A stretch of DNA of 18,423 nucleotides, from contig NW_021824556.1 in the NCBI RefSeq assembly GCF_006345805.1, forward strand, positions 1 through 18,423, read 5' to 3'. Under the pieces are notes generated by a model. The model was not told the origin of the DNA and ran no database searches. It was given only the letters and a program-made list of their open reading frames with translations. A program made the position numbers and the translations under genes. Below, piece by piece: positions 751 through 18,423 of the stretch (the stretch's first letter is position 1; every line of letters starts with the position of its first letter). This stretch comes from Octopus sinensis (Eukaryota).

Positions 751-1161
751 AGCTATAGTGCTGTTACATATATCATAATATTGGTTTGTTTACAAAATTA
801 TGTTCGCCGAAGTAGAGACATCACATGACCTTAATTTATGCAAACATCGTGTCACCCATCTGTGGTTGTTTACATCTGTGAGAAGTAGATCACGTTGCAC
901 AATCTTTGGGTGAACGTGCGCGCGCGTGCGTGCGCGTGCGCGTGCGTTTGTATATATATATACATAGATATGTACGCGTGCGTGTAACTTAGCCATTTCT
1001 CTTAAAACACGACCTTTTGCCTATATTGGAAATCATTACAGCCTCTTTGTATTGCGTTCTCTCGTTCACAGACATTCAAACATGTGTTTTGACTTTTATG
1101 CCATGTCAGTTTTGGACACATTCTTTATTTCTGACAATTTTCTCCATTCTCGTTTGTAACC

Positions 1162-1371
1162 TATTTCTTTATTACCCTCAAGGGGCTAAACACAGAGGGG
1201 ACAAACAAGGACAGACATAGGTATTAAGTCGATCACATCGACCCCAGTGCGTAACTGGTACTTAATTTATCGACCCCGAAAGGATGAAAGGTAAAGTCGA
1301 CCTCGGCGGAATTTGAACTCAGAACGTAGCGACTGACGAAATACCGCTAACGTTTCTGCTAGCTCGCCGCC
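1162..1371 (-). mobile_element. tRNA-derived SINE family A, monomer
   Basis: Head GGCGGCGAGCT, B-box GAGTTCAAATTCC, end AAAGAAATA. Perfect 15-bp TSD TTCTCGTTTGTAACC at 1147-1161 and 1372-1386. About 21 bp of the head is deleted between two GCTAA microhomologies. Confidence 0.95.
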
Positions 1372-1520
1372 TTCTCGTTTGTAACCGATTGGTCTGCTCC
1401 AGGGGTCGGCGAACTTTTAAATCCAATTATCCCCTAAATATATTTATTTATACCAACGCTACCCCCTTGATTTGAAAGGAAGAAAACCATAGATTCTTTG
1501 AATTCAAAAGGTTTGCTCCC

Positions 1521-2691: not shown

Positions 2692-3029
2692 TATATGTTG
2701 AAAATACTTTTTAAAGTGAAGTCTGTTTTACGGCGGACCTGAAGGTTCCAATGAATTTTAAAATTCAGCTGTGAACTTATTCTTCCAGATCCACAACAGT
2801 CATTCTGATTTGAAGCTTATATAAGAGCGATATCCTGTCCATCGTCTCCAGAGCCAACTTGCGCGCTATTTTGCATTCATCCCAGACTACATCTTAGGAA
2901 CTTGTCCCGTCCCCGAATTGTTAGCCATGTTGCGGGCAGGTACAGGTACAGGTGCTTCATTTGCGCACAAGAGAAGCTTGAAAGGAAAATGTGCTGACAG
3001 GACTGTGTCGACAATACTAGAAGAAACAA

Positions 3030-5095
3030 AGGCGGCGAGCTGCCAGAAGCGTTAGCACGCCGGGCGAAATGCGTTGCCGTATTTCGTCTGTCGTTACGTT
3101 CTGAGTTCAAATTCCGCCGAGGTCGACTTTACCTTTCATCCTTTCGGGGTCGATAAATTAAGTACCAGTTACGCACTGGGGTCGATGTAATCGACTTAAT
3201 ACCTATGTCTGTCCTTGTTTGTCCCCTCTGTGTTTAGAGCCCCTTGTAGGTAGTAAAGAAATAGGTATTTTCACCTGTCGCTACGTTCTGATTTCAAATT
3301 CCGCCGAGGTTGACTTTGCCTTTCATCCTTTCGGGTCGATAAATTAAGTACCAGTTACGCACTGGGGTCGATGTAATCGACTTAATTAATCCCTTTGTCT
3401 GTCCTTGTTTGTCCCCTCTGTGTTTTAGCCCCTTGTAGGTAGTAAAGAATAGGTATTTCACCTGTCGCTACGTTCTGAGTTCAAATTCCGCCGAGGTGAC
3501 TTTGCCTTTCAATCCTTTCGGGGTCGATAAATTAAGTACAGTTACGCACTGGGGTCGATGTAATCGACTTAATCCGTTTGTCTGTCCTTGTTTGTCCCCT
3601 CTGTGTGTTTCCCCTTGGTAGGTAGTAAAGAAATAGGTATTTCACCTGTCGCTACGTTCTGAGTTCAAATTCCGCCGCCGAGGTTGACTTTGCCTTTCAT
3701 CCTTTCGGGGTCGATAAATAAGTACCAGTTACGCACTGGGGTCGATGTAATCGACTTAATACCTATGTCTGTCCTTGTTTTGTCCCCTCTGTGTGTTAGC
3801 CCCTTGTGGTAGTAAAGAAATAGGTATTTCACCTGTCGCTACGTTCTGAGTTCAAATCCTCCGCCGAGTTGACTTTGCCTTTCATCCTTTCGTCGGGTCG
3901 ATAAATTAAGTACCAGTTTACGCACTGGGGTCGATGTAATCGACTTAATCCCTTTGTCCTGTCCTTGTTTGTCCCCTCTGTGTTTAGCCCCTTGTAGGTA
4001 GTAAAGAAATAGTATTTCACACCTGTCGCTACGTTCTGAGTTCAATTCCCGCCGAGTTGACTTTGCCTTTCATCCTTTCGGGGTCGATAAATTAAGTACC
4101 AGTTACGCACTGGGGTCGATGTAATCGACTTAATCCGTTTGTCTGTCCTTGTTTGTCCCCTCTGTGTTTAGCCCCTTGTAGGTAGTAAAGAAATAGGTAT
4201 TTCACCTGTCGCTACGTTCTGAGTTCAAATTCCGCCGAGGTTGACTTTGCCTTTTATCCTTTCGGGGTCGATAAATTAAGTACCAGTTACGCACTGGGGT
4301 CGATGTAATCGACTTAATCCGTTTGTCTGTCCTTGTTTGTCCCCTCTGTGTTTAGCCCCTTGTAGGTAGTAAAGAAATAGGTATTTCACCTGTCGCTACG
4401 TTCTGAGTTCAAATTCCGCCGAGGTTGACTTTGCCTTTCATCCTTTCGGGGTCGATAAATTAAGTACCAGTTACGCACTGGGGTCGATGTAATCGACTTA
4501 ATACCTATGTCTGTCCTTGTTTGTCCCCTCTGTGTTTAGCCCCTTGTAGGTAGTAAAGAAATAGGTATTTCACCTGTCGCTACGTTCTGAGTTCAAATTC
4601 CGCCGAGGTTGACTTTGCCTTTCATCCTTTCGGGGTCGATAAATTAAGTACCAGTTACGCACTGGGGTCGATGTAATCGACTTAATCCGTTTTGTCTGTC
4701 CTTGTTTGTCCCCTCTGTTGTTAGCCCCTTGTAGGTAGTAAAGAAATAGGTATTTCACCTGTCGCTCCGTTCTGAGTTCAAAATTCCGCCGAGGTTGACT
4801 TTGCCTTTCATCCTTTCGGGGTCGATAAATTAAGTACCAGTTACGCACTGGGGTCGATGTAATCGACTTAATCCCTTTGTCTGTCCCTTGTTTGTCCCCT
4901 CTGTGTTTAGCCCCTTGTAGGTAGTAAAGAAATAGGTATTTCACCTGTCGCTACGTTCTGAGTTCAAATTCCGCCGAGGTTGACTTTGCCTTTCATCCTT
5001 TCGGGTCGGTTAATAAGTACCGTATAATCGACTTAATCCATTTGTCTATCCTTGTCCCCCTCTGTATTTAGCCCCTTGTGGGCAATAAAAAAATA
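3030..5095 (+). mobile_element. SINE family A concatemer: one full monomer plus 10 head-less ~184-bp tandem units
   Basis: 11 B-box copies (~3104, 3290, 3478, 3661, 3848, 4039, 4221, 4405, 4589, 4774, 4960), period 184 bp in clean units. One perfect 17-bp TSD AATACTAGAAGAAACAA at 3013-3029 and 5096-5112. Confidence 0.95.
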
Positions 5096-5276
5096 AATAC
5101 TAGAAGAAACAATTGCAAGAGCTAAGTTTGTATGTTGTCGGACTCCAGCAATCAATAGACTGTTCAAAAATGTCTTTTCGGTGCTATACCTGATAAAGTT
5201 TACGGGAATAAACAAAAGACGATGGCAGGTGGAGTACAAACAAATGTTTTAGTATAGCGCTCAGGAATAGAAAAAG

Positions 5277-5314: not shown

Positions 5315-5752
5315 TACACAGAAAAAAAACAAGGTGAGAACCAAGGAGACAAAAAAATGCGTGTAGGAGCTAACGATCTATCATGGTGTCCTGATATATC
5401 CCATACCTGATACATACTTACAATTCAGTGAACCGTAACAATTATGCGCCTAGCCTAGGAAACACAGGGTAGTGAACTATACTTCTCTGTGGTACTAACT
5501 TTTCTTTTTGGTAACTAGACTATTGATAGTCAAGTGCTTTGGTTATAGACACAAGGACAATGAACCGTATAACAAAGCCCGTAACTATTCGTGTACAGTG
5601 TTTTCACTTCCTGTGAGTGAATGCTGAGTTTGTATTTGTTGTAGACAACAGCACATTGTTTGTGTAGGTTGTTGACAACATATGCACGCGTACACTCACA
5701 CTTAACCATTCTTACAGGCATTACAGATATACACGTGCACTGGCAAACGCAC

Positions 5753-5783
5753 CTGGCGCCTTAGACCACTCGGCCATTCTGAC
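5753..5783 (-). pseudogene. tRNA-Leu 5'-half fragment (31 nt)
   Basis: Reverse complement GTCAGAATGGCCGAGTGGTCTAAGGCGCCAG differs by one base from the metazoan tRNA-Leu(CAA) 5' end as I recall it (GTCAGGATGGCCGAGTGGTCTAAGGCGCCAG). No anticodon or 3' half. Confidence 0.75.
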
Positions 5784-5785
5784 AA

Positions 5786-6203
5786 GGCGGCGAGCTGGCA
5801 GAAACGTTAGCACGCCGGGCGAAATGCTTAGCAGTATTTCGTCTGTATTTACGTTCTGAGTTCAAATTCCGCCGAGGTCGACTTTGCCTTTCATCCTTTC
5901 GGGGGTCGATTAAATAAGTACCAGTTACGCACTGGGGTCGATATAATCGACTTAATCCATTTGTCTGTCCTTGTTTGTCCTTTCTGTGTTTAGCCCCTTG
6001 TGGGTAGTAAAGAAATAGGTATTTCGTCTGCCGCTACGTTCTGAGTTCAAATTCCTCCGAGGTCGACTTTGCCTTTCATCCTTTCGGGGGTCGATTAAAT
6101 AAGTACCAGTTACGCACTGGGGTCGATATAATCGACTTAATCCATTTGTCTGTCCTTGTTTGTCCCTTCTCTGTATTTAGCCCCTTGTGGTTAGTAAAGA
6201 AAT
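5786..6203 (+). mobile_element. SINE family A dimer (monomer plus head-less unit)
   Basis: Junction AAAGAAATAG|GTATTTC at 6018/6019. A 16-bp TSD AGATATACACG(T/C)GCAC at 5725-5740 and 6204-6219 also encloses 5741-5785. Confidence 0.93.
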
Positions 6204-6283
6204 AGATATACACGCGCACACAGGAGTTATTTGAGACAACCTCGTGACTCTCAAGTCAACGAGGAAGCCTTTAAGTGCTGCTA

Positions 6284-6528: not shown

Positions 6529-6809
6529 GAGAAATATCAAAGGTTAATGTTCGACCGATTAAACAAGATTTATAAGACGTCATCAGTGGAAGCTAAGCGT
6601 TTTTCATTACAAGACTCGGCGTCATTTCCGCTCCTTTCCCAAGAAGCATCGGTGACACGAGACCTCCACCCAGCACAAAACCCCCCGTCAATAGTCTCTT
6701 CTCAGATGATACCCATAATCTACCTGCCCCCACCCCGCTACCCAGAGAGGTAATATTTATCCCCACTTAAATATGGACGTTCCGTTAGAACGAGGTTTAC
6801 TGTAGTAGA

Positions 6810-7195
6810 GTGGAGGCGCAATGGCCCAGTGGTTAGGGAAGCGGACTCGCGGTCGTAGGATCGCGGTTTCGATTCCCAGACCGGGCGTTGTGAGTGTTTA
6901 TTGAGCGAAAACACCGAAAGCTCCACGAAGCTCCGGCAGGGGATGGTGGTGGTCCCTGCTGTACTCTTTCACCACAACTTTCTCTCACTCTTACTTCCTG
7001 TTTCTGTTGTACCTGTATTTCAAAGGGCCGGCCTTGACACTCTCTATGTCACGCTGAATATCCCCGAGAACTACGTTAAGGGTACACGTGTCTGTGGAGT
7101 GCTCAGCCACTTACACGTTAATTTCACGAGCAGGCTGTTCCGTTGATTCGGATCAACCGGAACCCTCGTCGTCGTAACCGACGGAGTGCTTCCCC
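6810..7195 (+). mobile_element. tRNA-derived SINE family C, tail type 1, full length
   Basis: A-box TGGCCCAGTGG, B-box GGTTTCGATTCC. 11-bp TSD ACTGTAGTAGA at 6799-6809 and 7196-7206. Near-identical to 16429-16816. Confidence 0.95.
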
Positions 7196-7404: not shown

Positions 7405-7635
7405 CTCTCTTTTACTCTTTTACTTGTTTCAGTCATGTGACTGTGGCCATGCTAGAGCACCGCATTTTGTCGAGCAAATCGACCCCAGGACTTATTCTTT
7501 GTAAGCCTAGTACTTATTCTATTTTTGCCGAACCCTAAGATACGGAGACAACACACCAGTATCGGTTGTCAAGCGATGTTGGTGGGGGGACAAACACAGA
7601 CACACAAACATATACACACACACACACCACACACA

Positions 7636-7667
<32 letters not shown>

Positions 7668-7696
7668 TATATATTATATATTTATATTTATATATA

Positions 7697-7740
<44 letters not shown>

Positions 7741-7893
7741 TACATATACGACGGGTTTCTTCAGTTTCCGTCTACCAAATCCACTCACAAGGCTTTGGTC
7801 AGCCCGAGGCTATAGTAGAAGACACTTGCCCAAGGTGCCACGCAGTGGGACTGAACCCGGAACCATGTGGTTGGTAAGCAAGCTACTTACCAC
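7405..7893 (-). mobile_element. SINE family B with expanded internal (CA)n/(TA)n
   Basis: Colinear with the other B copies; microsatellite at ~7615-7748; extreme 5' end runs into (CA)n at 7890-7933. Confidence 0.9.
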
Positions 7894-8499: not shown

Positions 8500-9060
8500 T
8501 AGTTTCAGGCATTAAACTGCGGCTATGCTGGAGCACCGCTTCGAAGGGTATAGTTGAACAAGTCTGCCTAAGGACTTACTTCTAAGTCTGGTGCTTATTC
8601 TTAGTTCTTTGCTGCCCACAAGGGGCTAAACACAGAGGGGACAAACGAGGACAGACAAACGGATTAAGTCGATTATATCGACCCCAGTGCGTAACTGGTA
8701 CTTGTTTAATCGACCCCGAAAGGATGAAAGGCAAAGTCGACCTCGGCGGAATTTGAACTTAGAACGTAACGGCAGACGAAATACGTATTTCTTTACTGCC
8801 CACAAGGGGCTAAACACAGAGAGGACAAACAAGGACAGACAACGGATTAAGTCGATTATATCGACCCCAGTGCGTAACTGGTACTTGTTTAATCGACCCT
8901 GAAAGGATGAAAGGCAAAGTCGACCTCGGCGGAATTTGAACTCAGAACGTAACGGCAGACGAAATACAGCTCGTCGGCAAGAGAGCCCTGGTGCTTATTC
9001 TGTCGGCTTTTGACGAACTGCAAAGTTAAGGGGACGCAAAGAAAGTAACATGGTGTTTTT
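8500..9060 (-). mobile_element. Old family-B-like 3' portion, split by a SINE A insertion
   Basis: CTGCGGCTATGCTGGAGCACCGC and GGTGCTTATTCTGTCGG..GGGGACG match the B tail; interrupted at 8602-8987. Confidence 0.65.
8602..8987 (-). mobile_element. SINE family A dimer
   Basis: Two units joined at the palindrome GAAATACGTATTTC (8778-8791). 14-bp TSD CTGGTGCTTATTCT at 8588-8601 and 8988-9001. Head partly deleted. Confidence 0.93.
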
Positions 9061-9095
9061 GCGGCTTTAATAATAATATGAACCATATATATATG

Positions 9096-9487
9096 TGTGG
9101 CTGTGTGGTAAGTAGCTTGTTTACCAACCACATGGTTCCGGGTTCAGTCCCACTACGTGGCACATTGGGCAAGTGTCTTCTACTAAAGCCTCGGGCCGAC
9201 CAAAGCCTTGTGAGTGGATTTGGTAGACGGAAACTGAAAGAAGACTGTCGTATATATGTATATATATATGTATGTATGTGTATGTGTATGTGTGTCTGTG
9301 TTTGTCCCCCTAGCATTGCTTGACAACCGATGCTGGTGCGTTTATGTCCCCGTTACTTAGCGGTTCGGCAAAGAGACCGATAGAATAAGTACTAGGCTTA
9401 CAAAGAATAAGTCCCGGGGTCGATTTGCTCGACTAAAGGCGGTGCTCCAGCATGGCCGCAGTCAACTGTCTGAAACAAGTAAAAGAG

Positions 9488-9488
<1 letters not shown>
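9096..9488 (+). mobile_element. SINE family B
   Basis: TGGCTGTGTGGTAAGTAGC..GGGTTCAGTCCC..TTGGGCAAGTG..GAAACAAGTAAAAGAGT. Confidence 0.92.
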
Positions 9489-9557
<69 letters not shown>

Positions 9558-10796: not shown

Positions 10797-11464
10797 ACCA
10801 CGCATTAACATTGCCAGAACCTCGGACCCTACACTGCGAAAATGTTTTGCTGTTTCTATCAAAGTTGCCCTCAGTAGCTGCCCATCCTCCTCTACTGAAA
10901 GTAGGTGGAATTATATCAGGGAAGCTTTGTATACAAACATCAATAGGTACTTTCAGCTTGAGTGAAAAGCAAAACCCAGATTGGTTCAGTGCTGGACTCT
11001 CAGAGCTGGAACCAGTTATCGAAGCAAAGCGCGCAGCTCTGATGCAATACAAGAGTGATTCTTCTACAAAGTCACTCGAAGAACTCAGAAATGCAAGAAA
11101 TAAAACCCAACTGACTGCCAGACGCTGTGCAAATAGGTATTGGCAGAAAATCTGTCAGACTATCCAGTCAGCTGCTGAAAGTGGCGACACCTGTGGGATG
11201 TATGCCGGTTTGAAGAGGGCCTCGGTTCATCCGCAACCAAGTCAGCCACTCTGAAATCAATTACTGGAGATCTCATCAAGGACCAAAGTAGGCAAATGGA
11301 TAGATGGGTGGAGTACTACTAGGATCTCTACTCACGGGAGACCACGGTAGCTGAGGCTGCAATCGAGGGTGTCAAGATCTTGCAGCCATGTGCGAACTTG
11401 ACAGTCTGCCGTCTATAGCAGAGCTCACCAAGACTAATCTCTCCCTAGCCAGTGGCAAATCCCT
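10795..11464 (+). pseudogene. RTE-clade LINE ORF fragment (between endonuclease and RT)
   Basis: RPRINIART..RWNYIREALY / QNPDWF..LEPVIEAKRAAL..ARRCANRYWQ..GMYAGLKRA / LKSITGDLIKDQSRQMDRWVEYY*DLYSRE..ELD..P..EL..LASGK, with frameshifts and a stop. Confidence 0.88.
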
Positions 11465-11714
11465 ATAAATGTTTCAAAGGTGGGTGGTGTGACACGCTGG
11501 ATAAGCTAGTCCCAGAAATTTTGTTTAATAACAAAATGACAAGATGTCACAGTTTAAACATCCTTGACTTCATAAGTCTTCCTGATCTAGATTTATAAAA
11601 CAACAACCGTAGTTGTTATCAGGACATATTGCTGATGTTTGTTATTCAACCATGACCAAGTGACCAAGTAAAATTATTGTCAAAAATTCTTCTCGTCACA
11701 CACAACCACACATG

Positions 11715-11813: not shown

Positions 11814-11854
11814 CTTTAATATTTTTATCCACATACGCGCTGGCATTGCTATCT

Positions 11855-12135
11855 GTTAAGAGGTTTGCTTCCCAACCACATGGTTCCGGGTTCAGTCCCA
11901 CTGCATGGCACCTTGAGCACGTGTCTCCTACTATAGCCTTGGGCCAACCGAAGTCTTGTGAGTGAATTTGGTAGACGGAAACTGAAAGAAGCCTGTCGTA
12001 TGTATTGTGTTTGTCCCCCACCACCGCTTGTCAACATGGCTTAAAAAAGAAAGTCCTGGGTCAATTCGTTCGATTAAAAACACTCTCCAAAGTGGTGCTC
12101 CAGCATGGGGCTGTCGACTGATTTGGAGTACCTGA
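11855..12135 (+). mobile_element. Diverged, deleted SINE family B copy
   Basis: CCAACCACATGGTTCCGGGTTCAGTCCC..GGTAGACGGAAACTGAAAGAAGC..GGTGCTCCAGCATGG. Confidence 0.85.
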
Positions 12136-12597: not shown

Positions 12598-13245
12598 TAT
12601 GTATATTGGCATCCTTTTTGTCCCGGAGACAATGGAGTTGCGCCAAAATTCTAGTCCGGTTTTTACATTTCATGTCCTTATACATTTCCTGCTGTGGCTG
12701 TGTAGTCCTATCCTGGACAAACGCTCACTCTGGCAGGTGCCGCAAATATAGCGAAGACTGTTCCTGGCTGGTTGTAATATCATAGTTTCTTGTTGATGTC
12801 TTTTCTTGTCTTTCCATTTCTCCTCTCTTTCTCTGTCACTCCTTTGTGTTCCCTCTTCTATTGTACGTCGCCAATCTCCACGGTTGCTGGCAACTGCTTC
12901 CAAGTTGCTAATATTGATGTCGGCATGCCTTCATGTCCCTTTTGCAAACATCCTTGTATCGTAAGAACTGCCTTCCCACAGACCTAGTGCCCCTAGCAAG
13001 CTCGCCGTAGAGCATGTCCTTGGGGATTCTGCCATCCTCCATACGACTAACATATCCAAGCCATCTCATACGTCTTTGTGTGAGGAGTGCAAACATGCTT
13101 GGTATTCCCGCTTGCTTGAGGACATCTTTGTCGGGGGCATGATTCTGCAATTTGATGCCAAAGATTTTCCAGAGGCAGCGCAGGTGAAAGATATTTAGGC
13201 GACGCTCTTGGCGTGGGTATGGCGTCCATGTCTCAATGCCATATA
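12572..13245 (-). mobile_element. 5'-truncated RTE-clade LINE 3' end with 3'UTR and (TACA)n tail
   Basis: YGIETWT..RLNIFHLRCL..RRMRWLGYVSRMEDGRIPKDMLYGEL..R..GR..LRYKDVCKRDMK, then C-terminal YICGTC..SRIGLHSHSRKC. Short 3'UTR CCATTGTCTCCGGGACAAAAAGGATGCCAA, then microsatellite tail. Confidence 0.92.
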
Positions 13246-14749: not shown

Positions 14750-14979
14750 GCGGCGAGCTGGCAGACACGTTAGCGCGCCGGGCGAAATGCTTAGCGGTAT
14801 TTCGTCTGTCGTTACGTTCTGAGTTCAAATTCCGCCGAGGTCAACTTTGCCTTTCATCCCTTCGGGGTCGATAAATAAAGTACCAGTTTCGCACTGGGGG
14901 CGACATAATCGACTCAATCCCTTCGTCAGTCCTTGTCTGTCCCGTCTATGTTTAGCCCCTTGTGGGCAGTAAAGAAATA
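14750..14979 (+). mobile_element. SINE family A monomer in a (TG)n tract
   Basis: Full head through to GTAAAGAAATA; followed by (TG)n-rich repeats at 14980-15075. Confidence 0.92.
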
Positions 14980-15648: not shown

Positions 15649-15951
15649 TCACCGTGACCGACCAGGCTATCAGATGTTGCTACGTATCGCTGGTCACAAT
15701 GCGCTTCACATTGTTTTAGCCTTCAAATGACGCCACTCCGCTGGCTAAGCGAGCAGGTCAACAGAAGAAAGAGTGAGAGAAAGTTGTGGCGAAAGAGTAC
15801 AGCAGGGATCACCACCACCCCCTGCCGGAGCCTCGTGGAGCTTTAGGTGTTTTCGCTCAGTAAACATTCACAACGCCCGGTCTGGGAATCGAAACCGCGA
15901 TCCTACGACCACGAGTCCGCTGCCCTAACCACTGGGCCATTGCGCCTCCAC
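15649..15951 (-). mobile_element. SINE family C, tail type 3
   Basis: Head and body near-identical to 6810-6992 and 16429-16612; unrelated tail at 15649-15765 ending in (TA)n. Confidence 0.92.
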
Positions 15952-15956
15952 ACATA

Positions 15957-15994
<38 letters not shown>

Positions 15995-16148
15995 TGACGA
16001 GCTTCTTTCAGTTTCCATCGACCAAATCCGCTCACAAGGCTTTGGTCGGCCCGAGGCTTTAGTAGAAGATACTTGCCCAAGGTGCCATACAGAAGGACCG
16101 AACCTGGAACCATGTGGTTGCAATGCCAGCTTCTTACCCCACAGCCAT
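15995..16148 (-). mobile_element. SINE family B 5' half
   Basis: Head and CORE-like part up to the internal microsatellite, where the SINE C copy abuts. Confidence 0.85.
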
Positions 16149-16428
16149 ATATATAAACACACACACACAAACGCACACATACGTATATATGTGTGTGTGT
16201 GTGTAAGCACACACACATGAGTACTTATGCGCACGCGTGTGTGTGTTGCTTCATCGATGTTATTCTCTTTCTCTTTCAGATTACCTTTGTGCTGTTATTC
16301 CCAGAGAATGAAATGCTTCTGTAATATGAGGAAGAATGGTCAAGCAACAAATTCCTTTAACCTGTTGATTCCAAGAACCAATAATTCCCAGGTGTATGAC
16401 ACGACATTAGCGGCCTATCAAGAAGATT

Positions 16429-16816
16429 GTGGAGGCGCAATGGCCCAGTGGTTAGGGCAGCGGACTCGCGGTCGTAGGATCGCAGTTTCGATTCCCAGAC
16501 CGGGCGTTGTGAGTGTTTATTGAGCGAAAACACCTAAAAGCTCCACGACGCTCCGGCAGGGGATGGTGGTGATCCCTGCTGTACTCTTTCACCACAACTT
16601 TCTCTCACTCTTACTTCCTGTTTCTGTTGTACCTGTATTTCAAAGGGCCGGCCTTGTCACTCTCTGTGTCACGCTGAATATCCCCGAGAAGTACGTTAAG
16701 GGTACACATGTCTGTGGAGTGCTCAGCCACTTACACGTTAATTTCACGAGCAGGCTGTTCCGTTGATCGGATCAACCGGAACCCTCATCGTCGTAACCGA
16801 CGGAGTGCTTCCATCC
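16429..16816 (+). mobile_element. SINE family C, tail type 1, full length
   Basis: Perfect 12-bp TSD ATCAAGAAGATT at 16417-16428 and 16817-16828. Confidence 0.95.
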
Positions 16817-16852: not shown

Positions 16853-17069
16853 TTCTTTTGTATTCTAGGCACAAGGCCCGAAATTTCGTTGGGGGCTGGT
16901 CGTTTAGATCGATTCCAGTACGAAACTGGTACTTAATTTATCGACCCTGAAAGGATGAAATGTAAAGACGACCTTGGCGGAATTTGAACTCAGAACGTAA
17001 AGACAAACGAAATATCGCTAATATCGAAATTTCACACGGGGTGCTAAAGGTTCTTCCAGCTCACCTCCT
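16853..17069 (-). mobile_element. Older SINE family A relative with an alternative 3' tail
   Basis: Head and body align to family A; the tail (plus strand TAGGCACAAGGCCCGAAATTT) differs from the TGTCTGTCCTTG..AGCCCCTTG tail. Confidence 0.8.
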
Positions 17070-17122
17070 TTGGAGGACTTATATTCACATATAAAATATA
17101 AAGTGAAGAGAAAATTTGTGAA

Positions 17123-17456
17123 GACGGCGAGATGGCGGAAACGTTAGCACGCCGGGCGAAATGCTTAGCAGTGTTTCGTCTGCCGTTACGTTCTGAGTTC
17201 AAATTCCGCCGAAGTCGACTTTGCCTTTCATCCTTTAGAGATCGATAAACTAAGTACTAGTTACGCACTGGGGTCGATATAATCGACTTAATCCGTTTGT
17301 CTGTCCTTGTTTGTCCTCTCTGTGGGTAGTAAAGAAATAGGTATTTCGTCTGTCTTTACGTTCTGAGTTCAAATTCCGCCGAGGTCGACGTTTCCTTTCG
17401 TCCTTTCGAGGTCGATAAATTAGATCGACCACCAGTACGCAGCTGGTACTTAATTT
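17123..17456 (+). mobile_element. SINE family A dimer, second unit truncated with a short inverted piece
   Basis: Junction AAAGAAATAG|GTATTTC at 17340/17341; 17419-17456 is the reverse complement of the next body segment. Confidence 0.88.
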
Positions 17457-17689: not shown

Positions 17690-18423
17690 TCTATATATAT
17701 AAAACTGTAGTTGTGTGAGTGTCTGTCCCCTTCGATTTAGATTCCTAACTACTCCCACATTTTTTATTCCATTTTAATGCATATTTTTTCGTGTGTCGAT
17801 GGCGGCGGAGTTGGCGTCCACGCTCAAACACCTGCACCTGTGTTGCTTCTCCCCCTTCTTCCATTCCTCGTGAAGCTGTGGGGAAGGGAGTGTAAGGAAA
17901 TCAACGTCGTAATGCGTTGTCAAGGAGACCAGCGTTCTTTTAGAACAACGACTTCATGGCTTGAAGACACCAAAACAGAAATCGCTAAAAAAGCTGAAAC
18001 AGATCCACAAAAACGGCAATTACCGCCACACAGGGCAGGTTTCCTGTGCAAACCGAATGTTTTAGTTGTTGCACAAATCTTTATGTATAAAAGTCAAGTT
18101 GTGTGTCTGTCTCCTCCGATCTAGATTCCTAACTCCTCCCACATTTTGCGGTGCAGTGTAACCAAAACCAGGTATCTTATAGTCGTGATTCATATCGAGC
18201 CCTTCTGGGTATTAGCGCGCGTCTACGATGAGTCTACGATTAAAAAGAAAATTTACCATAATTTTTTATTCCATTTTAATGCATTTTTCGCTATTATATA
18301 AGGGAAGTAACTCTCTTAAAATGTCTACGATGAGTCAACGATTTAAAAAAAAAAATTACCATCATTTTTTATTCCATTTTAATGCATTTTTTGCTATAAC
18401 TCACTAAAAATGCTTTATAGTTA
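17690..18423 (+). mobile_element. Helitron-like element 5' region with two 5' termini, running off the window
   Basis: A|TCTATATATATAAAA at 17690 and A|TCTTTATGTATAAAA at 18078, each followed by GTTGTGTG..TAGATTCCTAACT.CTCCCACATTTT. Internal ~72-bp direct repeats. No CTRR 3' end seen. Confidence 0.6.

Follow-up and report, generated by a model that had tools for sequence, protein, structure and literature searches.

Retrozymes carry tandem short units flanked by a target-site duplication (TSD). Tandem arrays derived from short interspersed elements (SINEs) have been described in several systems, the published accounts of which are drawn on here in part. In S. broughtonii, a blood clam, arrays of 4–15 units with the form TSD1-(SINE)n-TSD1 hold a headed first unit, head-truncated repeats and a distinct last unit within one TSD (PMC11481361). 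Squamate sSat arrays consist of tandem repeats of a portion of a SINE and have a terminal unit of greater length, a homogeneity that rises with array length, and di- or trimeric patterns (PMC10702118), and a large share of the copies of the Dip, B1 and B2 families are head-to-tail multimers of up to eight units, for which the authors are undecided between insertion and dimeric templates (PMC8466645). It is in these same respects that they resemble the element considered here, an 11-unit SINE array at positions 3013–5112 of an 18,423-nucleotide stretch of Octopus sinensis DNA (contig NW_021824556.1 of assembly GCF_006345805.1). This stretch, hereafter the window, makes up the whole of a contig that is unplaced in the 2.72-Gb assembly. 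Multimers of this tRNA-like SINE with a fixed junction number in the tens of thousands, the array being one of them, and it probably grew in place through self-targeted insertion followed by local expansion.

The array is composed of a 49-bp head segment and 11 units, enclosed by the exact 17-bp TSD AATACTAGAAGAAACAA, which is present just twice in the window and whose match cannot be extended; the single perfect TSD around a multi-unit array, reported in an initial annotation made from the letters alone, is therefore exact. Its parts are as follows, element positions being numbered on a natural copy at 5785–6018 of the window.

3013..3029, forward strand: left TSD of 17 bp, an exact match to 5096–5112
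3030..3078, forward strand: element positions 1–49, the 5' portion of the tRNA-like head, with an A-box-like motif at ~3041–3053
3079..3264, forward strand: unit 1, positions 50–234, a young A-type body with a B-box-like motif at ~3103–3115 and an A tail ending in GTAGTAAAGAAATAG
3265..4935, forward strand: units 2–10, near-identical and A-type, with the common markers 57A, 58C, 95T and 218A
4936..5095, forward strand: unit 11, an old terminal unit with its own tail (GGGCAATAAA...)
5096..5112, forward strand: right TSD

The units start at 3079, 3265, 3453, 3637, 3824, ~4010, 4197, 4381, 4565, 4750 and 4936 and measure 184–188 bp, with the exception of unit 11, which is shorter (160 bp) and carries two deletions; Tandem Repeats Finder (TRF) reports 3079–5021 as 10.5 copies of period 184 with 93% matches. 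The initial annotation had described repeated, head-less units. Their tandem order holds, but they are not one sequence, as unit 1 is set apart by its 5' part and unit 11 by its tail; and while the A-box-like motif is indeed absent from them, the B-box-like motif is kept, since the units restart at element position 50, within the tRNA-like region. Both motifs were recognised by their likeness to the A- and B-box consensus. The array head differs from the family majority by 5 changes in 49 bases, and unit 11 differs from the internal majority by 12 substitutions and 23 gap columns, whereas units 2–10 show 0–3 substitutions each, mostly next to indels. The pairwise distance of the internal units is 0.025, whereas A units that are independent of one another differ by 0.103 (1% quantile 0.043), and three family-common states at positions 173–177 follow each other in units 1–10 in the order ABC ABC C A C B. 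Five TTTT runs lie in the array, mostly at indels, and a typical unit has none, as had been seen for the consensus unit. That RNA polymerase III (Pol III) could read through such a unit, as had been concluded, is less clear, since TATTT is present in every junction and TGTTT twice per unit, and these motifs terminated Pol III at 42% and 20%, respectively, in HeLa constructs (PMC8466645).

Eleven is the number of units as assembled, in a contig with indel noise in units 2–6, and may not be exact. Nevertheless, it is highly improbable that the array is an assembly or long-read artefact. This explanation would be in line with the unplaced 18-kb contig, the indel noise and the lack of an allele in the assembly, where neither the right flank (40 of 2419 candidates scored, all repeats) nor the left flank led to one. 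It is contradicted by the ordered family alleles among the units, by arrays of 8–14 units elsewhere, several of them on chromosome-scale contigs, and by run X4, labelled as another organism (C), whose short-read contigs join both ends to the flanks. One of these contigs joins left flank, TSD and head (2830–3059; 9 other letters, 6 gaps) and carries one substitution inside the TSD, and the other joins the tail of unit 11, TSD and right flank (5074–5236; 1 other letter), both at single-copy depth. Because they span both joints, the two ends of the array are real and the insertion is common to the X4 organism. In the left flank, at 2883–3001, runs X1 and X2 show two alleles that are 3 substitutions and a 6-base gap apart, and the locus is thus polymorphic beside the insertion. 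Among the joints listed for four runs, which the repeat dominated, none crosses the array, and this tells neither for nor against an empty site or a shorter allele. Part of the window sequence also occurs in RNA-labelled sequencing runs.

Fixed-junction multimers are a property of the family, as had been proposed. Genome-wide, 42,443 sites match the junction pattern exactly and none matches its reversed control, and a random sample (60 pieces of 10 kb) contains 104 family elements of at least 100 bp, which occupy 4.1% of its bases and extrapolate to ~470,000 copies. Multimers make up 17 of these 104: in this random 600 kb, 87, 11, 3, 2 and 1 elements have one to five units, respectively, three dimers of locus L241 adjoining each other and probably forming one array. 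Out of 27 junctions in the random multimers, 25 restart at positions 49–52 and 2 at position 16, where a second fixed junction, with a different tail, has 3,472 exact matches; chaining of units accepted downstream starts at 12–30 or 44–70 only. Most of the other loci discussed below were chosen by exact motifs and lean young, L185–L244 alone being random. The suggestion that TSDs enclose multimers is also borne out, as TSDs of at least 10 bp surround 29/47 dimers and 9/16 multimers of more than two units (shuffled-pair control, 10/372). TSDs in the family vary in length (controls 10/372 and 10/585) and average 16–18 bp, and the family is short, interspersed and of high copy number, as expected of a SINE. 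The first 95 nt of a natural copy fold with a GGCGG/CCGCC closing stem (z −2.65); as for a tRNA in the head, ARAGORN found none and Rfam gave no tRNA match.

When monomers are classified by their tails, a young class (A) stands apart from C1, C2 and C3, which are older and differently tailed. Copies with an A tail terminate in part of GGTATTTC, which is the family's own sequence at positions 49–56, and their TSDs begin with GGTATTTC. At non-family sites, the TSDs of most of the 15 A-ended elements listed start with GGT or GGTA, and the ends of A copies match GGTATTTCG over 3–8 bases in 42 of 54 cases, the 11 full-length matches among these 54 ends probably being unchained junctions. The tail also predicts the site: GGGTAGTAA stands before 164 of 283 position-50 junctions, and GGGCAATAA is the commonest tail before position-16 junctions (24/48). 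Moreover, 27 of the 61 full units with A or B tails in random DNA precede a family unit, though the family makes up such a small part of the bases. The start of the TSD differs between tail classes (A, GGTA; B, AGAA; T, ATAT; C1, AATAT; C2/C3, ATTAT). All tails have the motif CCTTGTG in common, within a small hairpin in A and B, and this motif is likely the recognition element of a long interspersed element (LINE).

Many multimers consist of a head, one or more A units and a last unit with a C tail, and these parts differ in age. In 64 C-tailed multimers the private-allele rate is 0.030 for the first unit and 0.071 for the last (~0.027 in A monomers, 0.05–0.12 in C monomers), the last unit being older in 57 of them and the first in 4 (p=2e-10); at position-16 junctions, the downstream unit is older in 23 of 38 cases and younger in 12 (p=0.011). 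Last units stem from several older subfamilies and form no clusters, their nearest neighbours lying at 0.05–0.24. For the TSDs, tests were confined to elements with a full head, a classed tail, complete flanks and a 5' flank below 88% AT, with two-headed loci excluded (164 of 687 elements), and means were taken over matches with at most 3 mismatches in 13. The TSD of a multimer is about four times more decayed than that of young monomers and goes with the old last unit: in the 9-nt core, the 24 A monomers average 0.25 mismatches (18 perfect cores), the 25 C-tailed multimers 1.08 (6 perfect cores) and the 18 C monomers 1.56 (2 perfect cores). The contrast is clear between A monomers and C-tailed multimers (p=7e-5) and weaker between multimers and C monomers (p=0.07). 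The former is found at scoring lengths of 10, 12, 13 and 15 (p=0.026, 0.004, 0.0007 and 0.049), with C1 alone (p=5e-4), and with the 13 A monomers that were not chosen via a tail search (p=0.002).

These ages bear directly on the route preferred in the initial annotation, according to which multimers are themselves retrotransposed. In the form weighed here, whole multimers would arise from read-through Pol III transcripts of many source loci, each with an old last unit. It is unlikely that they mainly did so, as the TSD should then be as young as the first unit, and not some fourfold more decayed, and the last units would not be expected to lie unclustered. Siblings are missing as well: among 218 multimers there are 3 close pairs (both first units) out of 18,933, within the permuted range (mean 1.4, maximum 9), and thus there are no tribes of whole multimers at this sample size. 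If the HeLa efficiencies applied, the ten TATTT and ~20 TGTTT motifs would leave far under 1% of transcripts spanning the array (PMC8466645). On the other hand, whole-multimer jumping would readily account for the TSDs that enclose multimers, for heads that are mostly young and A-type (fully so in A+C1 multimers), for the junction haplotype 58C-62T-65C, which recurs at several loci, and for compound transcripts that have jumped (L127, L146 and L134–138). The excess of perfect TSD cores in multimers over C monomers would allow, by a crude mixture estimate, for a minority of about one fifth. Junction-bearing copies likely do serve as templates.

Nested intermediates, which also count against whole jumping, come from loci in which the start of a body is followed within 3–12 bases by a new head, a pattern with 159 exact matches (control, 0). 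At 14 of 24 distinct loci examined, a resident head or junction runs to position 61 and is followed by a full A copy and by resumption near position 50, that is, a full young copy lies at position ~50 of the resident, with positions ~49–62 duplicated. Both copies of 57–62 are identical in 11 of 17 scorable nested cases, where permutation expects 3.7 and came as close in 0 of 5000 trials; because identity within a locus exceeds permutation in this way, they are true duplications of resident sequence. Traces of the resident also persist in one-headed multimers. The resident haplotype 20T+37A is present in 6/30 C2/C3 multimers, compared with 4/115 A-class heads (p=0.006) and 49/85 C2/C3 monomers, resident head alleles fall off from position 20 to 51, and head positions 2–16 show extra private alleles in A/B/T-ended (p=0.002) and C3-ended (p=0.011) multimers. 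The switch of alleles lies close to the junction: the C allele at position 60 is found in 21/29 last units and 4/28 first units, first units being A-type by 51–64 and last units C-type from 60–64. Side by side with these cases, L104:1037–1640 and L145 hold full A copies in tandem with the same TSD between them, nested in an older copy, and so take the form TSD-(SINE-TSD)n. A second kind of SINE-derived tandem is formed by heads alone (positions 1–61, period 65), repeated before a full copy at L134–L138 (G000:C1:195.36 Mb), L139 and L132–133; a head-only tandem also occurs at G000:C7:15.32 Mb, and the L134–138 case lies inside one TSD starting with GGTATTTC.

Two further explanations can be weighed against these observations. 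Reverse transcription might start on the RNA of an old copy and, on reaching GGTATTTC, change over to an A-tail RNA at its 3' end, so that the chimera would arise during insertion. Such a template switch would explain the fixed junction, the varied old last units and the A-type heads with no need for a collapse step, but it is improbable, since it predicts young TSDs, no remnants of resident heads and no duplication of 49–62 around a full copy, whereas the TSDs are old, remnants occur in 6/30 multimers and the duplication is observed. Alternatively, multimers might derive from existing dimers without reverse transcription, by ectopic gene conversion or unequal recombination, for which the family offers a great many donors and for which local duplication, plain in long arrays, would speak. 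In this case tracts should switch at scattered points, and not within the narrow interval just described, and neither TSD-flanked nested copies nor monomer TSDs starting with GGTA would be produced; as a source of the multimers this is very improbable, and conversion or recombination likely explains just the late expansion.

Growth in place, in contrast, would proceed in five steps. The first is the tail itself, which ends in part of a copy of the family's internal positions 49–56. In a second step, a leaky Pol III stop at the TATTT of the junction would release an RNA whose 3' end could pair with matching nicked DNA, and family copies would be the best and commonest match for the 3' end of an A-tail RNA; a young tail ending in GGTATTT would thus match the internal site and insert there. 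That a TATTT stop gives RNA ends of the GGUAU(U)(U) type in octopus is extrapolated from the HeLa constructs. The third step would yield a full A copy inside the resident, with ~49–62 duplicated, which is the state seen at two-headed loci. Fourth, the two 61-bp heads would collapse to one, at integration or afterwards, leaving head, new unit and resident body within the resident's old TSD; since this recreates the same target, the insertion step could repeat. Finally, arrays would expand locally by unequal exchange or slippage, a mechanism suggested by the pattern of their units, since locus-private mutations and block repeats are common to the units of most arrays with at least five of them.

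It is nevertheless important to stress that several observations weigh against this proposal. A fixed junction and a single TSD are by themselves insufficient to separate the models. The proposal is weakest in the change from two heads to one, either by replacement at pairing during integration or because the 61-bp repeat collapses afterwards: loci with two heads are seldom found (0/17 random multimers, and the 159 matches stand against the tens of thousands of junctions), most multimer heads are A-type throughout, and those of A+C1 multimers are no older than A monomers (private alleles 35/539 vs 48/761, p=0.91), so that near-complete replacement of the head is required. No pair of filled and unfilled alleles was seen. 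As to the TSDs, 6 of the 25 C-tailed multimers have a perfect core, and across individual loci the number of mismatches shows no correlation with the divergence of the last unit (rho −0.31, p=0.14, n=25). Perfect TSDs of 14–19 bp enclose 8 of 25 scorable arrays of at least four units, which were chosen for likeness to the young units of the 3013–5112 array and include it; a perfect TSD is a little surprising here if the resident is old, though the X4 copy of that TSD carries one change. At L127, L146 and L134–138, compound transcripts jumped whole, with the TSD outside a head fragment plus full copy. In addition, some templates run past TATTT, the A allele at position 64 being found in 11/34 C1 last units compared with 1/19 C1 monomers. 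Since compound transcripts sometimes jump and some templates pass TATTT, a minority of whole-multimer insertions is likely.

The later local expansion that had been suggested is well documented in long arrays. Tetramers are of two kinds, with either unrelated units (pairwise 0.09–0.20; L058, L031 and L262), which by these distances fit serial insertion, or units with private mutations in common. Arrays of at least eight units are all of the latter kind (L083, L060, L293, L338 and L350); L338, for instance, contains an exact repeat of a 4-unit block, and L350 at least 13 near-identical units. At least two rare alleles are common to adjacent units in 18 of 135 pairs, compared with 0.4% at random. 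Because such locus-private mutations and block repeats are common within arrays, the long ones, that at 3013–5112 included, grew locally. Shortened units (165, 174 and ~168 bp) are found at L100 (G000:C1:181.81 Mb), L109 and L360, respectively, and as several units carry the same deletion, they point to local duplication after deletion. Two candidate relationships were rejected: L013 matches the markers 218A, 57A, 58C and 95T but differs from the 3013–5112 array in head and tail, so that it was not taken as its daughter, and the closest units of L342 and L343 lie at 0.017, yet these arrays have no unit-by-unit match.

The near-identical, head-to-tail order of units 2–10 is also what would be expected if a 184-nt circular RNA were copied by rolling-circle reverse transcription, the retrozyme-like route raised in the initial annotation. 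Here this route is exceedingly improbable and the suggestion is not upheld. Three family alleles are arranged in blocks among the middle units, from which the end units differ, many tetramers hold unrelated units, a second junction type exists, the fold of the unit does not surpass that of shuffled sequences (z +0.99), and no ribozyme is found among 45 Rfam matches, none of which lies within the array, an uncatalogued ribozyme being conceivable.

On growth in place, the simplest history of the array is that unit 11 and the TSD, perhaps with the head, represent the original old resident, which then received three or more A insertions and underwent a homogenising expansion; at least three A donors would account for the three states at 173–177. 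Taken further, the family might be regarded as a "homing SINE", whose 3' guide copies its own internal site and whose young copies home into old ones, overwrite the promoter head and rebuild both target and guide. This extension is possible but, on balance, doubtful. If true, the loop would be self-reinforcing, with two pairs of guide and site at tens of thousands of loci, and would seed satellites genome-wide.

Besides the array, the window contains other copies of the same family:

1161..1372, reverse strand: A-tail monomer whose TSD begins with GGT, a continuation of the tail
5785..6205, forward strand: dimer with junction at 6009–6025 and a 16-bp TSD with one mismatch (5725–5740/6204–6219)
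8602..8971, reverse strand: 5'-truncated dimer with junction at 8778–8794 and an exact 14-bp TSD (8588–8601/8988–9001)
14750..14976, forward strand: monomer
16899..17069, reverse strand: older monomer with a C1-type tail
17122..17422, forward strand: dimer with a truncated second unit and junction at 17331; a TSD was looked for and none found

Both the presence of the same junction in these three dimers (6009, 8778–8794 and 17331) and the possession of their own TSDs by two of them had been noticed previously, and both were confirmed. The TSD of the 5785–6205 dimer also encloses 43 extra bases between its left copy and the head (5741–5784), which on the minus strand resemble the 5' half of a tRNA-Leu, ARAGORN having found no gene; they may be a tRNA fragment that was captured in inverted orientation. 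Another abundant SINE family, which contains internal (CA)n/(TA)n microsatellites, is found at 1529–1950, 2282–2690, 7408–7893, 9090–9490, 11840–12110 and 15990–16150 and presumably resembles the octopus OR CORE-SINEs. A third, tRNA-headed family is present at 6808–7195 (+), 15650–15950 (−) and 16430–16812 (+), the last copy apparently flanked by a repeat of ATCAAGAAGATT. Decayed LINE-like coding fragments, presumably RTE-like, lie at 10870–11480 (+) and 12610–13240 (−), and a Pfam scan of 12930–13240 in three frames gave 0 families. Finally, 17690–18400 contains duplicated blocks, GATTCCTAACT..CTCCCACATTTT at ~17740 and ~18125 and TTTTTATTCCATTTTAATGCAT at ~17760, ~18262 and ~18365, which together resemble a different repeat with internal duplications.

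Growth in place would be a direct route from a jumping element to satellite DNA, a change usually ascribed to chance unequal recombination. All stages, from the old monomer through nested insertions with two heads, dimers with one head and mixed tetramers to homogenised 8–14-mers, coexist in one genome, and because the site is fixed and the loci number tens of thousands, the steps can be dated and tested. In addition, a single TSD around a multimer is not proof of a single insertion, which matters for the dating and counting of SINEs, this family alone comprising ~4% of the genome. If heads are indeed replaced, old loci are put to new use by a young subfamily, which may re-arm them.

A literature search, with most subscription papers and the repeat databases outside its scope, turned up no octopus SINE described as multimeric or as inserting into itself; an existing catalogue may already list the family as a dimer. 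PMC4758252, PMC3531059 and PMC8967140 were also covered. The possibility that the SINE body is the 66-bp Meta domain of MetaSINEs gained no support, and the family is not classed as a MetaSINE: four short body motifs gave 0 matches in the PMC4824008 supplement, and the BivaMeta sequences in the part of it compared look unlike the SINE body by eye.

When considered next to the known systems, the array shares with sSat, as defined in part of PMC10702118, a minimum of four middle monomers that each stem from a portion of a SINE (here nine) and a terminal unit of greater length, together with within-array homogenisation (the 0.025 vs 0.103 given above). Squamate sSat, however, comprises up to 1000 units and favours subtelomeres, while arrays here reach at least 14 units, and it is attributed to unequal recombination or same-locus insertion, without TSD analysis in the part of that account covered (PMC10702118). 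Units of Dip, B1 and B2 are full-length, as stated in part of the same source, whereas the octopus units are truncated at a fixed internal site. Compared with retrozymes, the array shows heterogeneous units and a tRNA-like head, and neither an Rfam ribozyme match nor LTR-like ends were seen, no search aimed at the latter having been made. For an Alu-like dimeric SINE, units and TSD of one age and few dimer masters would be expected; here the ages differ and no siblings turn up among the 218 multimers, and a minority contribution of this kind is possible. SINEs mobilised by RTE elements are alike in that the first TSD bases match the RNA 3' end, but in animals this microhomology covers 1–2 bases and TSDs are mostly of 13 bp or less (PMC6007223, in part), in contrast to the mostly 3–8 bases and the longer TSDs of this family. 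The Alu hotspot at position 133 is likewise a site of sense self-insertion at one position of the family with pairing of RNA tail and target; there, poly(A) meets an A-rich linker and both heads are kept, whereas the octopus family has a short complex guide from the head region, two tails for two sites, and nearly exclusively one-headed products (PMC2836564, in part). The clam also has the TSD-(SINE-TSD)n form seen at L104 and L145; its middle units are 3'-truncated as well, its long arrays comprise 64 elements, and its authors suggest unequal recombination, while in octopus the tail of the middle units is complete, tens of thousands of loci have one fixed junction and nested intermediates are found (PMC11481361, in part). 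Thus, what appears to be new is the combination of a sequence-guided self-insertion site in the head, two pairs of tail and site, and one-headed products in an old TSD, as well as the tens of thousands of such loci that feed locally grown arrays.

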